Shown here one piece after another: positions 36,001-57,000 of a DNA stretch of 64,000 nt. Made by a program: the position numbers. Numbering within the stretch: the first letter of the stretch is position 1; each line of letters opens with the position of its first letter. The stretch is from Escherichia coli (GTDB taxonomy: Bacteria > Pseudomonadota > Gammaproteobacteria > Enterobacterales > Enterobacteriaceae): NCBI RefSeq assembly GCF_041248615.1, contig NZ_CP158425.1. One strand, 5' to 3'.

Positions 36001-39000
36001 TATTTCCCAGAGCGTTATCATTGTGAACTCAGCTAAAGTTCGTGGGCTCTTTACCAGAAAGCCATTTAATGCTCGTCGCCCCTTCAGCATGCCAACGTGG
36101 TAGGTCTTGTTGGGATAGGGTTTCATTGCCACCAGCGAATCAGCTTTAAGCTCAAGTGACAATTCAGGGACAGACACGGACATGAGAGTACACTTGTTTT
36201 TCATATGGTGAAGAATACGTGGCACAAGATGCAGATACATCATTTTCTCCTTTTATGGATATAACTGGCAGATCCTCAGCAGCATCAAAATAGTTAATAG
36301 ACTTTTTTAATTGGTTAACCACTGTTGATTGACTTGTTTTATGTCTCTGAGAAATTATTCGTTTTGTTTCTGTTCGTTATACTGCTCAAACCAGAAGACG
36401 ACCGGTTTTACTACAATATGAAGCAAACCAAAACGTTCTGCGGTACGGAAATTCACGCTATATGCGCGAGCCCGTTCAACCTGTTTGGTAATTTCATTTC
36501 TCATTCCTTCAACACTAAAAGCTCCTTTAAAAAGGTTGCAGGGAGCGCATGATGGAAATAAGTTTTCTATTGCATGCAGTTCAGGGTGCATAACCTTACC
36601 CGTACTTCGGGCAACATGAGTTACGCCGCTGCCGACCGGGGCTCTCACCAGTTCAAAGTCGCGTCGAACAGGCTCAACATGATCGGCATGCCACCCTTTT
36701 TCAGGAAGCTTGCAACCACAATAGGCACAACGCCCCCCAAATTTCATTCGCAGCTCAGCTCGCTGTATTTTAGAGATCTTATTTTTAGGTTTTGAGAACC
36801 TACCATCAGGTGATTCCGCTTTGGATAACTTTGCTGAGGGCTCAGGTAACTCAACTAAATTCCCGTTGATATTTATCACCTTGACCATATCATTTTCCGC
36901 CTTTACTAATCTCACGGGCACAGGAGCTGGCTTAAGTAACCGCTGAAGTTAACAGCCACTGACTGCCTCTACCCAGACCTTCTGTTTATACTCAATAGGC
37001 CACCCCTCTTTATCTGCCCGGATGACGCAATCATTTACCGTGGTGCGTGACCGGATACGAACATCAAGCGGAAGCGAATCGTTATCCACACGAGCCTGTG
37101 CCTCATTTAAAATGCGTAAAAACATCTCTTTGGTCATTCAGATACCCCCTCAACTTTGCGAATTTTGATCAGATGAGGGCGATTCAGTTTACAAAGTTGT
37201 TCTGTCGCTTCATCAATCGAATTGAACCGATGAGCCTCTTCGATATTTAAAGTCCAGTATTTCGCTTTCCCTTCTCCCAGATCGGACTCAAAATAATTTC
37301 GCTTTACATCCATTTTTTTAGGCCTGCCATTTATCTTGACGACATTATGTCTGTCATCAAAAAGAAATTCGTCCCCCTCAAAAGTGATTAATACAAATGG
37401 CCCCTCAGGCTTGGAAGTCCGGGGACTTCCCATTTTCAAAGTCATACTTCAGCCTCTCGATAGAACTCATGAAACCTCAAATTAAAATGGACTCACACCA
37501 CACTGATTCAGTATTCCTCCTGAACCCCATTAGGCTCTGTTGTGATTTCATATTTAATACCGCCAGGTGCTCCCACAGCGTCCGCGACCGACTCACACAG
37601 CAGCGAGAGATCGTTGAGGGTCATTGGGTGTTCAATGTCCAGCGTGAAGAGTTTCCCGGCTTGCTTGGCGGCTGTCTTGTCAGCATGTTCAGCATTAAAA
37701 AGGTATACGGTGTGTTTTTCCTGAGCGGGGGTATTTTGATTTTGCATTGATGATCCTTTTGTTTAGTTCCCCGATTCCGGGGGTGAGTGAATTAATTTAA
37801 ATTTATATTTGTCTGGTTTAATTAGAACGTTTCCAGGCTATGCGTAAACAGGTAATGCAAAGGCTGTATCAACAGGATTAAAGTTACTTTTCTGGATGCA
37901 GCAACGCTTGGACATGATGTCCACATTACATCACGATCAAAGCTAAGTTTTTTTTGTATAACCCCTTCATTTTCGTGTGTTTCGCGTTTCAGACGCTTAT
38001 ACGACCTGCCTGACCATCCTCATCAGAAGGCGGTTTAACAGTCCTTTCGCTGTCGGGCGATTGCTATCGACATAGTAAAAACCTGTTTTGGTCGTACCGT
38101 GAGCACTGCTCAGCACCCTCAGTTCCCAGATAACGTCACGGATAACGCCGCCATTTTCTGGCTTAAGGCATTCAGATAAATGGCGCATGAAACGAGCTCT
38201 TACGGCACGGTAATAGCGGAACTCCTCTGGCTGGTTAGTATTTTCTTTCACCCGGAGTCGCTGGTTACACAGAGTTAGAACTGCATCCATCATTCCCGCC
38301 TTCAGCTTCGCCTGGATCGCACCTTGTTGCTGTTCCCTCTCACCTTCGAGTAACGTTAAGATTCTTTCTCCGAGTGCCGTCTTGTTGTGTACGTGCAACT
38401 GTACACAGGCAGCTACGCATGCCCAGAATCTGAACTTTTTTATCTGTCCACGCAATTTCCGGGCTACAACCTGACGGTATGCAGTATCGCTGAGTATTTT
38501 AAAACGCCGACTGGCAACCAGCTCTGGAAGCGACACTCTTTCGCCTATCCCCAGGCGGGAAAAGGTTTGTCCCCGTTGTGCGAGACGATGATAGACAGCG
38601 CCCTTCCCTTTTGAAATTCGGACCGCGCCATAACGAAGAAGATACTGAGCAGCAGTCGTTGGAGTAAACTCACCGTCAGCGATGCTCTGGCGTAACCCGT
38701 CGTATTCATGCCAGATAATCCAGGACGCCGTATCTTCTTCAACAGTCAGCTCATCCTCTTCCTCGAATGCCACGACGACAGAACTGCTCTCTCCGGTCTT
38801 TAGGCTACGTGAAGCCCTGGGGTCAGCCTGCCCGTCAAAATAGGTCATCAGCGGCAACGTATCAGTCAGTCCATCATAAGCTGTACCGAACCGGCCTCCG
38901 GGCAGTTTCATCCAGAGTGGAGCTGGCATTGGTGTACGGGCCACAGGCAGCATGTCAGGCTCATCCTCAAGAAGGTCCAGATCGGCCTCTTCCCAGACTC

Positions 39001-54000: not shown

Positions 54001-57000
54001 TTTTTGAACTTCATCCAGAGTACGCTGTGCACCGTTATCCAGCACCAGCACACCCCCAGCACGAATTTCTGAAATGGTGCGCACCGTATACATCATTTTA
54101 TCCCAGACACGGCTACCAACCTCGATCCCGGAATCAGCTACTTTTTTTTCATTATGCTTTTGAAAAATTTCTTCTAACCATGTGGTGAAGCGCTTTCCAA
54201 AAGTATTGGCGGCTAAAGAAGTGCAGGAATAAACCTGTTCGACCTGTTTTGTTCCATTTTTATCAGTGAATGTAATGAGACCGATTCGTCCACTGTTAAC
54301 AGTGTAAAAGCGAGGTTGAAAGCCAGCTTTGAGAAGGTTTTCAATAGCTGAAAAAAAATCTTTTTTGAGCATCGGTTTCAAGATGGTTTTCCTTTTATGC
54401 CCGGTGCCGCCGGGACGGTGGCATTAAATATACGCCATGTAAGTAAATTAATTTTTACCCATTTGATTGTCAATACAAACAAAAAATAAACCATGTTTAT
54501 TATTTTACCAGCGATGCTATTTTAAAGTCCGTCTAAAATAAAAAACCAAAAAGTTAAATTTGAAGCCATCCTTCCTAAATTCATTTCTTGCGCATATTAG
54601 CCCCTGCTTTAAGTATATAATTTTTGAAAAAGTTGTCTGGAGGTTATTAGCTCGTGCATCTGGATTGTTAATATAAAGCCAACACAGAAAAGGAAAACAA
54701 AATGTATAAATTAGTATCTCCTCGTGAACTGACTGAGATTATTACCGGTTTACTGCTTAAACCTGAACTCCTTGGTGAGCTGGACTCACCAGAAAAGCAT
54801 CGGATGTTTATGGCAGATTTAGGCCGGGTGGTGGCAGAACATTGTGGAGGTCTGGTAAACAGCGTCGTCTTGCCAGGAGCTGAAGTTACAGTGCCGGATG
54901 GGTTACCGCTTAACGGCCAGCCAGTACGTTATCTCGGAATCAAAGAGAGCATCCCTCACCTCCTTGTAGAGCCTGATGCTTCCTTACCTTCGCTCGCTAA
55001 AAACGTCTGGATGTATGCAGATCCTGAAGGCTGGAAAGAACATTTTGGAGCTGAGGAAGACTGCCTTACTCATGAAATGATGCAGCTGTTCCGTAAAGGT
55101 ATCCAGGCTCTTCAGAAGGAGCATGATACCCCTGAAATTAGCCTCACACTTCAGGACTGGCGCCTGGAGGAGGAAACACTGAGAGAAGAGGACAGTCAGG
55201 CCTATCAGGTCAGCGTTACCGGCCAACATAACATCCACTGTGAAGTTGTTAACAAGGAAGGTAACCCCTGTTTTGGTGTCATGTTCGAAATCGATCAGGG
55301 TGTGCCTGCCTTACACATCAACACCGGCGGGGATATGTTGCTCCACATTCATTGCGCCCATAACGGACTCGTTCTGACCCCTGATGCAAGCGGTCAGCGA
55401 TTTGAGAAGGCTCCCGTTGACCGCTTCGCTTATAACAGCCCATCCCTGCTGTTGTCTGCCGACTAACCAAGGCCAAATCTGAATTGTCCTGTTTAAGTAA
55501 CCAACCCGCTGCCGCCAGGCGGGTAAATCCTCTTAATGGAGTTTTAATGCAAATCTCAACTGAAGTTCTGAACGTCTTATCTCGCTGCCGTGCTGAAGGG
55601 AACTTTCTTTTCCTGGCCGACCAGCTCGACCGCAGCATTTATGTTAAGACAAACAAAGTGCTGGAAGCTGCCGGTGGCAAATGGAACCGAAAAGAGCAGG
55701 CACATATTTTTACGGCGGATGCAGCTGAGCGTATCGAGCAAATCATTCTGACAGGTTCGGTCGACATCCCACGTGATTTGTTCAATTTCTTCCCTACCCC
55801 TGAGAATTTAGTCACAGATATGGTTCTACGCGCTGAACCAGCTGCCGGGGAACGTGTTCTGGAGCCTGAGTTTGGTGATGGCCGCATTCTGAAAGCCTTA
55901 AAACTGGCGGCTCCGGATGCATTGATTACCGGGATCGAATTGAACGATGAGCGATTCCTTGCAGTGAAGAACGATAGTGTCCTTAGCACAGGGGCCGAGC
56001 TGGTGCATACCGACTTTCTTGGGTACCAGCCCGATGAAACTTTTGATGTTATCGTTATGAATCCACCATTCCTTAAACGCTCTGACGTTAAACATGTCAT
56101 GCATGCCATCGCAATGCTCGCTAAGCGAGGTCGCTTACAGGCCATTCTGTCAGCTGGGGTATTGTTCCGGGAAGACACACTGACAAAAGCGCTCAGGGAG
56201 CGAGTCAAACAACTTGGCGGACAAATTTCGCCTCTTCCGGATGATACATTTAGGGAGTCCGGAACAAAGGTCAAAACAGCCCGCCTTGAAATTGATCTTC
56301 GCCGCTAACTGACAAGCAACCGGAAAGAAATCTTAATACGAGTAGCCGGTTAAAGTTACCTGACCGGCTTAACTGACTAAATCAATAAAGAGTGAACAGA
56401 AATGACGCATACTGCCGTTTCTCAGGCTAATAGTGCTTTGCAGCTACCCACGCTGGAGCATGTCTACGCACTTCTGAAAGCAAATTGTAAACCTGACCGC
56501 TTTGACGGGCGTGACGGACCCGTGTGGGGCCAGGAATACTCGTGGAATCTGGCAAAAGATCGCTTACAGGATCTGGAGAAATACGGTAAGGCATATGTCT
56601 CCCGTCATGAAGACCGTATGGGGGAAGGATTTAGTTTTGGTCCTGACCTGTTAATTATTCGCTAACGCTCTTAAGGCCTGATGATATGGTAAGCACAACT
56701 GGAAAAAATATGTTTTCAAAGCCTATGACCACTTTCACACCAGAACGTATTGAACAAATTTTGGAATTTTCCGAGGGTAGTAACCCAAGCGAAGCAATGA
56801 GTCTTAGAGCTGACGAAGTTGCTGTACTGGCACGTATTGGAAAGGCAGTTATGTCGATTGCGCCTGTTTATCAGTGCGAGTTTTGCCACCATGACGCAAC
56901 CGGGCAACTTCAGTGGCACTGGGAAGATGTGAACAAAGCTTTTTATGATAAATACGATCCAGACAGACGCGGAAGACGTCGAATCCTCTATACCGCCCCG

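Follow-up and report, generated by a model that had tools for sequence, protein, structure and literature searches.

Solitary DNA-modification genes in two accessory modules of an IncHI2 plasmid backbone

Here, we present an analysis of methyltransferase-like genes and neighbouring DNA-modification and nuclease genes in a 64,000-nt stretch of the Escherichia coli contig NZ_CP158425.1 (below, the window), which is the backbone of an IncHI2 plasmid (IncHI2A; MOBH relaxase; MPF_F) and as such a very common resistance-plasmid backbone. An earlier note on this DNA had pointed out three methyltransferase-like genes (here, MT1, MT2, and MT3) and an HNH nuclease without an obvious cognate restriction partner; all four are intact open reading frames (ORFs), and their positions had been given correctly. 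The best explanation of our observations is that the conserved backbone between the Tra1/hok-sok region and repHI2 holds two accessory modules with solitary DNA-modification genes: (i) module A (43565-46970), which comprises an M.PvuII-like beta-class enzyme (MT1) that is fused to an N-terminal winged helix and probably specific for N4-cytosine, together with MT2 and three small genes; and (ii) module B (55547-56308), which provides a gamma-class adenine-methyltransferase catalytic domain (MT3) devoid of a recognition domain. MT1 and MT3 are solitary. We tentatively consider conditional protective methylation around transfer to be the most likely function of these genes, which are uncharacterised orphan methyltransferases of a type known from conjugative plasmids and already annotated in RefSeq.

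MT1 has the hallmarks of a beta-class DNA methyltransferase. It matches Pfam N6_N4_Mtase (PF01555) with 78.5 bits (cutoff 26.7), the PADLOC model for type II methyltransferases with an E value of 1.2e-46 and, in a phmmer search of the PDB, M.PvuII (1boo) with an E value of 2.3e-39 (residues 105-392 against residues 10-291), an alignment that covers the entire catalytic and recognition region. Motif IV (SPPY, residues 134-137; S134, P135, and P136 are invariant across six homologs) precedes motif I (residues 359-365), and because of this order the beta-class assignment made in the earlier note is correct. The serine form of motif IV favours N4-methylcytosine (m4C), and based on this motif MT1 probably makes m4C. 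Thus, MT1 shares the beta-class motif order and the S-P-P-aromatic motif with M.PvuII, the N4-cytosine enzyme of the PvuII type II restriction-modification system. In contrast to M.PvuII, it has no R.PvuII or C.PvuII partner, its motif I is divergent, and it carries an extra winged helix of ~100 aa (Mrr_N, approximately residues 17-84, 29.6 bits compared with a cutoff of 29.5). Full-length homologs of MT1, including the winged helix, are present in 2278 plasmid records; besides IncHI2 plasmids, these include IncHI1B/FIB Klebsiella plasmids (51% identity), IncC plasmids (50%), and Pseudomonas megaplasmids (45%), and across IncHI2, IncHI1B, IncC, and Pseudomonas megaplasmids the full-length architecture is kept at 45-52% identity with an invariant catalytic motif. 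Two candidate relationships were rejected upon comparison: the small N-6 methylases adjoining MT1 homologs in IncC and Pseudomonas plasmids are not orthologs of MT3, and the 250-aa gene upstream of MT1 in pPMK1-NDM is not a homolog of MT2.

MT3, which the earlier note had called an NPPF adenine methyltransferase, is a gamma-class catalytic domain of the N6-adenine type. Motif I (LEPEFGDG, residues 105-112) lies upstream of NPPF (residues 172-175), and both motifs are invariant in 36 homologs. The protein matches Pfam N6_Mtase in part (27.4 versus a cutoff of 20.4). In its AlphaFold model (predicted local distance difference test score [pLDDT] 93), the best Foldseek matches are all DNA N6-methyladenine (m6A) methyltransferases, i.e., M.TaqI (E value 4.7e-13), type I HsdM proteins, the PacII methyltransferase subunit, M.BseCI, and CamA; similarly, the PacII subunit and M.TaqI ranked first when the family profile was compared with the PDB. 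Thus, MT3 shares the order of motif I before NPPF and the fold with M.TaqI and HsdM. Unlike these enzymes, MT3 stands alone without a recognition domain or an HsdS-like partner: the protein stops directly after the catalytic domain, structural alignments, which span only ~190-210 columns of targets with 380-550 residues, revealed no target-recognition domain, and no HsdS-like gene was found among its neighbours. On this basis, we infer that MT3 would have relaxed or no sequence specificity. The N-terminal 75-aa domain is conserved and matches no Pfam family. PHROG families with profiles of 1259-3925 aa (phage protein families that contain methyltransferase modules), in which relatives of MT3 are annotated as DNA methyltransferases, align to nearly the entire protein. 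In this respect, MT3 is similar to methyltransferase modules within large polyvalent proteins of phages and plasmids, from which it differs in being a stand-alone protein of 253 aa. Relatives of MT3 are also found in the early operon of a lambdoid prophage in Pantoea, between the repressor gene and the cIII/recT genes, and beside an integrase gene in Comamonas.

The search for a restriction partner of these enzymes covered the region 35177-57297, in which Pfam was applied to every annotated gene and NCBIfam, PHROGs, and PADLOC to subsets of those genes. Among the ~30 neighbouring genes, the only nuclease domain that these four profile libraries revealed was that of the HNH protein, a result that reflects a detection limit and is not proof of absence. 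Within this limit, the statement in the earlier note that no restriction endonuclease adjoins the methyltransferases holds. We also considered, and rejected, the possibility that a PvuII-type endonuclease or controller is hidden among the small neighbours: searches with the three small genes of the MT1 block gave no match in Pfam, PHROG, or the PDB, PADLOC gave none among the small neighbours either, and the PDB search of the 142-aa and 125-aa proteins returned no nuclease. More importantly, the genes downstream of MT1 differ among IncHI2, two IncHI variants, IncHI1B, IncC, Aeromonas, and Pseudomonas plasmids, and no partner gene that travels with MT1 or MT3 was found across the plasmid and phage lineages compared.

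Of the three methyltransferase-like genes, only MT1 and MT3 have the look of DNA methyltransferases. MT2, which the earlier note had called a possible Rossmann methyltransferase, has no Pfam match; however, it matches the PHROG 15480 'methyltransferase' family (3.5e-34), its AlphaFold model (pLDDT 94) has the Rossmann methyltransferase fold, and it has the glycine-rich S-adenosylmethionine (SAM) loop (NGLGLGM) and the acidic residue ending strand 2 that characterise class I SAM methyltransferases. The fold therefore stands; a status as a DNA enzyme does not. The motif (D/N/S)PP(Y/F/W) was not found in MT2, its position being occupied by an invariant WHDIW (H153, D154, and W156 are invariant), nor did MT2 show structural similarity to DNA methyltransferases. 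Because this motif is missing, MT2 is a protein with a methyltransferase fold in which nothing marks a DNA enzyme. Its closest structures are small-molecule enzymes, and spermidine synthases ranked first (5e-6) when its family profile was compared with the PDB. MT2 shares the Rossmann fold and the glycine-rich loop with class I SAM enzymes similar to guanidinoacetate N-methyltransferase and spermidine synthase at 12-19% identity; it differs from them in that its family is confined to plasmids and phage-like elements and in that, by our reading of the motif, its glycine loop lacks the acidic residue seen in aminopropyltransferases.

These properties bear on the possibility that at least one of the three genes, MT2 and possibly MT3, does not methylate DNA and instead acts on a small molecule, RNA, or protein, for instance a host factor or a nucleotide-derived signal. 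We find this possible, yet less probable than protective methylation. For MT2 itself, a non-DNA substrate is likely in view of the spermidine synthase matches and the missing catalytic motif. For MT3, weak NCBIfam matches to PrmC and Erm and the label 'predicted RNA methylase' in some sources point in this direction, while its top profile and structural matches, all to DNA adenine methyltransferases, and the annotation of its PHROG relatives argue against it. Even for MT2, the genetic context suggests a DNA-linked role: the gene is inherited in a block with MT1, a paralog overlaps the start of MT1 in another IncHI lineage, and in an IncA/C-like plasmid of Aeromonas, homologs of MT2 and MT1 are 4.6 kb apart. 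No terminator-like site was seen in the 168-bp gap between MT2 and MT1, and the two genes are probably co-transcribed. Elsewhere, an MT2 homolog adjoins an integrase gene near a Lar restriction-alleviation gene.

How might these enzymes serve the plasmid? We tentatively propose that they are silent in ordinary growth at 37°C, thereby also avoiding methylation-dependent nucleases such as McrBC and Mrr, and that their expression around transfer or establishment would result in methylation of the plasmid DNA before the restriction enzymes of the recipient cut it. IncHI transfer functions are thermosensitive, and constitutive m4C would also invite attack by McrBC or Mrr. Mrr restriction of m4C DNA is mentioned in the literature on plasmid-encoded single-strand-specific methyltransferases. 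An anti-restriction role is plausible by analogy: the leading regions of plasmids show an enrichment of orphan methyltransferases (PMC11541004), and M.EcoGIX, an enzyme that stays silent in its host, acts on the entering strand and shields the incoming plasmid (PMC7736820). Similar to M.EcoGIX and M.BceJIII, which are single-strand-specific and for which protection of the entering plasmid from restriction has been proposed or shown (PMC7736820), the genes analysed here are plasmid-borne and solitary, and no methylation is seen in the native host during laboratory growth. However, M.EcoGIX and M.BceJIII are DPPY m6A enzymes with the promiscuous target SAY, and their genes follow a single-strand promoter in a leading region that has been demonstrated; by contrast, the enzymes of the window carry SPPY or NPPF, no single-strand promoter was found, and the likeness to M.EcoGIX is one of description. 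In favour of protective methylation around transfer, the array of mostly minus-strand genes at 18.6-54.4 kb, hok/sok among them, is oriented toward the predicted oriT. The association of relatives of these genes with mobile elements, the purifying selection on all three genes, and the accessory nature of both modules also speak for it.

Several observations weigh against protective methylation around transfer. First, the published evidence on methylation leans negative for growing cells. The single-molecule real-time methylome of Salmonella Senftenberg ATCC 43845, which carries the IncHI2 plasmid pSSE-ATCC-43845, comprises six motifs, all of them m6A (PMC5347186); the corresponding ORFs are BFF41_00175 to BFF41_21025, while the plasmid locus tags begin at 24770. 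Thus, no motif is attributable to the plasmid and no m4C motif was reported, even though the MT2 and MT3 proteins of pSSE-ATCC-43845 are identical to those of the window. In the same plasmid, MT1 is interrupted by the loss of 1 bp from four consecutive C (window position 43951; L008 ~17.6 kb), which could be a real frameshift or a PacBio or assembly error; the apparent identity of 88% is an artefact of this single deletion, and we therefore do not regard this MT1 as a divergent allele. MT1 is also in pieces in NZ_MF174859.1, and the disruptions in the two plasmids could reflect occasional inactivation or long-read assembly errors. Second, motif I of MT1 is atypical, reading FAGLHKVP (DPFAGLHKVP in the window) compared with FGGSNTTG in M.PvuII and FSGSNKSG in the IncC homolog, and G363 is its sole invariant residue among the homologs compared. 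Third, MT1 is only 31% identical to M.PvuII, so its target cannot be read across; CAGCTG, which is neither avoided nor enriched in the window (40 sites versus 35 expected), was accordingly not adopted as the target. Fourth, conjugation by IncHI1 plasmids proceeds without these genes.

Further points of this kind concern location and expression. In IncA/C plasmids, oriT lies immediately upstream of mobI (PMC5587640), and by analogy we predict oriT of the window in the intergenic region upstream of mobI. The methyltransferase genes are 35-48 kb from this site, and MT3 is on the strand opposite to the array. For MOBH plasmids, the nick site and transfer direction have not been determined, even for IncA/C (PMC5587640), and a position in the leading region can therefore not be claimed; no information on the oriT, nick site, or transfer direction of IncHI plasmids could be obtained from the literature, and the plasmid taxonomic unit PTU-HI2 was left out of a recent study of leading regions, as most of its members have no known oriT. 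If transfer proceeded rightward, the array including MT2 and MT1, and excluding MT3, would be transcribable from the entering strand. Upstream of the genes, we found no convincing hairpin resembling a single-strand promoter (intergenic fold z-scores of at best -2.5 to -4 and no long hairpin) and no convincing sigma-70 promoter, promoter-like matches being fewer than in shuffled sequence. The literature on the AcaCD regulon of IncC plasmids, which carry homologs, does not mention the methyltransferases.

Methylomes of hosts of a related plasmid are in line with that of the IncHI2 host. In two IncA/C-bearing Salmonella strains, a beta-class plasmid methyltransferase, which we infer to be the IncC relative of MT1, has the REBASE-predicted target CAGCTG; the enzyme is among those listed as 'not assigned to a motif', and methylation of CAGCTG was not reported in the hosts (PMC4393132, PMC3868858). 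The 221-kb plasmid of S. Typhimurium CFSAN001921 was considered as an IncHI2 methylome control and rejected: it is an IncA/C plasmid and therefore informs only on the 50%-identity relative. The earlier note had named the lack of a plasmid-attributable methylation motif as an observation that would refute its reading, and for cultures at 37°C none is present in the published IncHI2-host methylome. However, M.EcoGIX is likewise silent in its host (PMC7736820), and consequently this negative result does not refute a transfer-linked role; rather, silence of the enzymes in culture fits the published methylomes.

The same data also count against the idea that the methyltransferases act on the resident cell, either as epigenetic regulators of transfer, replication, or gene silencing or as a kind of 'vaccine', by which the host genome would be pre-methylated such that PvuII-type systems could not establish themselves or kill after their loss. 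We consider both versions together unlikely. The N-terminal winged helix of MT1 could serve autoregulation or targeting of MT1, CAGCTG is not depleted in the window, and regulatory orphan methyltransferases as well as protection from post-disturbance restriction-modification attack have been described (PMC11541004, PMC11602122). Nevertheless, a regulator or vaccine in the resident cell should leave a motif, and no plasmid-attributable motif is seen in growing IncHI2 hosts or for the IncA/C relative, arguing against a resident-cell role. Moreover, the missing recognition domain makes MT3 a poor fit for site-specific regulation.

The distribution of the genes identifies both modules as accessory, because they are absent from the syntenic region of IncHI1. 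Specifically, the IncHI1 plasmid pHCM1 keeps the HigB gene, a 393-aa ORF, the 263- and 149-aa genes, the DndC-like gene described below, the HNH gene, and the DUF6012 gene, while it lacks the entire block 43565-46970 (the 125-, 142-, and 85-aa genes, MT2, and MT1) and also MT3. The MT2-MT1 block is kept by two divergent IncHI lineages, one of which also keeps MT3; the second lineage has an extra MT2 paralog, the end of which overlaps the start of MT1. In a comparison of the window with a lineage in which synonymous divergence is saturated (synonymous divergence [pS] 0.74-0.82), the ratio of nonsynonymous to synonymous divergence (pN/pS) was 0.10 for MT1, 0.23 for MT2, and 0.21 for MT3, and few genes of the array are more constrained than MT1. 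These low ratios show that all three genes encode proteins under strong purifying selection. This argues against the view that they are inactive remnants left by the decay of restriction-modification systems, which a successful lineage would carry along passively, as does the maintenance of full-length MT1 with an invariant catalytic motif across plasmid families at 45-52% identity. We therefore regard the relic scenario as very unlikely, although the lack of attributable methylation in published methylomes, the disrupted MT1 copies in some records, the atypical motif I of MT1, and the absence of all three genes from IncHI1 plasmids, which keep their conjugative ability, would agree with it.

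The HNH protein is best explained as a separate, selfish or accessory free-standing nuclease, consistent with the suggestion in the earlier note that it could be independent. Its Pfam score is marginal (22.2 versus 21.4 bits), its match to PHROG 2118 'HNH endonuclease' is strong (1.7e-55), and the signature CxxC...HADH...N...CxxCN is intact (CAYCGC...HADH...ENL...CAPCN). The family occurs in 2707 plasmid and 170 phage records, and its members are located between trbC and traN in an F-like tra operon, next to ea22 in a P22-like phage, and adjacent to the DNA ligase gene in T4-like phages; in these F-like tra operon, lambdoid, and T4-like settings, no such methyltransferase is nearby. The gene also persists in pHCM1, where MT1, MT2, and MT3 are all missing. 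Such a scattered distribution, independent of context, is the pattern of a free-standing (homing-type) enzyme and not that of a restriction partner, and HNH was rejected as a partner for this reason. With the free-standing HNH endonucleases of phages and plasmids the protein shares PHROG 2118; unlike its scattered relatives, it is a stable IncHI backbone gene beside a DUF6012 gene. HNH-type type II restriction enzymes exist, restriction enzymes are hard to detect by sequence, and several flanking genes are without a match in any library; still, a cognate nuclease that is either HNH or unrecognised among the hypothetical neighbours, and that would make this a true restriction-modification or defence system for plasmid addiction or phage defence, is highly improbable, since none of the genes flanking MT1 or MT3 is shared across lineages, HNH lies at a distance of 6.6 kb (MT1) or 18.7 kb (MT3) and persists in plasmids devoid of the methyltransferases, members of its family stand alone in F-like tra operons and phages, and PADLOC gave only weak, sub-threshold generic HNH matches and no system.

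Within the range covered by the earlier note, but omitted from it, lies a gene for an orphan DndC-like protein that is possibly a further DNA-modification enzyme. The protein has the PP-loop motif SGGKDS and matches the PADLOC DndC model (4e-38) and TIGR03183 (NCBIfam DndC; 6e-34), the latter with 117.6 bits, far below the cutoff of 290.4. It thus shares the SGGKDS motif and profile matches with DndC of phosphorothioation systems. It differs from Dnd systems in this sub-cutoff score, in an extra C-terminal region of 430 aa that matched nothing, and in the lack of partners, as dndA, dndB, dndD, and dndE were not found among the genes of the region. The protein is conserved in IncHI2, IncHI1 (75% identity), and IncC (47%) plasmids. 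In a K. oxytoca IncHI1B/IncP plasmid (L006 26388-37029), the DndC-like gene is truncated after 119 codons and the backbone downstream of it is replaced by a DEAD-box helicase gene and a CBASS (cyclic oligonucleotide-based antiphage signalling system) operon with genes for a cGAS/DncV-like nucleotidyltransferase, a phospholipase effector, E2/UBC, and MPN. This exchange suggests that the site of the DndC-like gene is a hotspot for the exchange of defence and anti-defence genes.

Table 1. Positions of the genes and elements discussed (window coordinates)
Feature	Position	Strand	Basis or remark
MT1: solitary beta-class DNA methyltransferase, 416 aa	43565..44815	-	Pfam, PDB, PADLOC matches
MT2: class I SAM-methyltransferase fold, 202 aa	44984..45592 (RefSeq start; ORF to 45604)	-	PHROG 15480, AlphaFold
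Three small genes (85, 142, 125 aa), gained or lost with MT2 and MT1	45748..46970	-	IncHI comparison
MT3: solitary gamma-class NPPF N6-adenine-type catalytic domain, 253 aa	55547..56308	+	Motifs, Foldseek, Pfam
Free-standing HNH nuclease	36355..36888 (RefSeq start; ORF to 36921)	-	Pfam, PHROG 2118
DndC-like PP-loop protein (phosphoadenosine phosphosulfate [PAPS]-reductase family), 794 aa	37997..40381	-	PADLOC, TIGR03183
Predicted oriT: intergenic region upstream of mobI	7408..8164	.	Inferred by analogy with IncA/C
mobI	~8165-8650		Mapped from NZ_CP022165.1
MOBH relaxase	~9394-12540		Mapped from NZ_CP022165.1
Array of small genes	18.6-54.4 kb	mostly -	Includes hok/sok
hok and sok RNA	28398-28556		Inside small-gene array
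repHI2	~62-63 kb		Mapped from NZ_CP022165.1

The gene layout of the window was mapped from the annotated record NZ_CP022165.1, one of those identical to the 21-kb query described below. In that record, RefSeq names HNH 'HNH endonuclease signature motif containing protein', MT1 'site-specific DNA-methyltransferase', MT2 'hypothetical protein', and MT3 'methyltransferase', and the 794-aa gene located between them 'phosphoadenosine phosphosulfate reductase family protein'. A 21-kb query (window 36000-57000) was 100% identical to many E. coli and Salmonella IncHI2 plasmids; it matched 1179 plasmid records, 915 of which hold at least 80% of the query. Relative to NZ_CP022165.1, the window has an insertion of ~1.3 kb at 32198-33504 that holds an ALIL pseudoknot such as occurs in IS3-family elements, and it lacks the ISApl1-mcr-1-pap2 cassette and the IS66 element of that record.

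Several neighbours are worth recording. Two paralogs of ~800 aa with DUF4165 and bacterial Ig-like domains (49819-52236, minus strand; 57762-60182, plus strand) flank the MT3 module, a third sits past repHI2, and a separate, larger IncHI protein is annotated RSP in pSSE-ATCC-43845. A HigB-family toxin gene (48568-48864, minus strand) is followed 9 bp downstream by the 393-aa ORF (47378-48559, minus strand), which RefSeq shortens to 315 aa with the label 'flavin reductase' and which is annotated at its full 393 aa in other IncHI lineages (61-63% identity); its product may represent a fused partner or an antitoxin of unusual size. Just past the right end of the window are two further methyltransferase genes that the earlier note omitted. 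In pSSE-ATCC-43845, they encode a 563-aa DUF4942 protein, the C-terminus of which is an MT3-like NPPF domain (27% identity; L008 41090-42781), and a D12-class methyltransferase of the Dam family (L008 44562-45335). With these two genes beyond repHI2, the IncHI2 plasmid has at least five genes for proteins with a methyltransferase fold. Finally, some 6-bp palindromes are strongly avoided in the window (positions 1-64000), i.e., CTGCAG (0 versus 16.0 ± 4.0 expected), GCCGGC (0 versus 10.6 ± 3.3), CTCGAG (0 versus 5.6), CCGCGG (0 versus 4.9), and GGCGCC (1 versus 9.5). These counts suggest passive avoidance of restriction sites in the IncHI2 backbone.

Among MOBH plasmid families, MT1, the DndC-like protein, and HNH form a recurring gene set. 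We speculate that MOBH megaplasmids (IncHI2, other IncHI, IncC, and relatives) share a DNA-modification toolkit that is silent during growth and switched on only around conjugative transfer, an extension that we hold to be quite unlikely as it stands. Such a toolkit may consist of a winged-helix-fused m4C methyltransferase, a small SAM enzyme similar to guanidinoacetate methyltransferase that is inherited together with it, an adenine methyltransferase without recognition domain, and an orphan DndC-like enzyme; it might include non-methyl DNA modification by the DndC-like protein together with MT2, and it may substitute for ArdA, KlcA, and similar anti-restriction genes that these plasmids appear to lack. 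According to a recent preprint (10.1101/2025.04.03.647016), MOB-H plasmids have no peak of known anti-defence genes, and how IncHI plasmids cross restriction barriers is unclear. This gap and the recurrence of the gene set across MOBH families lift the observation slightly above the routine. Should the genes turn out to be inactive or regulatory, this would refine the way in which plasmid genes annotated as 'orphan methyltransferase' are read. IncHI2 plasmids rank among the main carriers of mcr-1, carbapenemase, and heavy-metal resistance genes, and the solitary modification genes described here are obvious candidates for the means by which IncHI plasmids cross restriction barriers.

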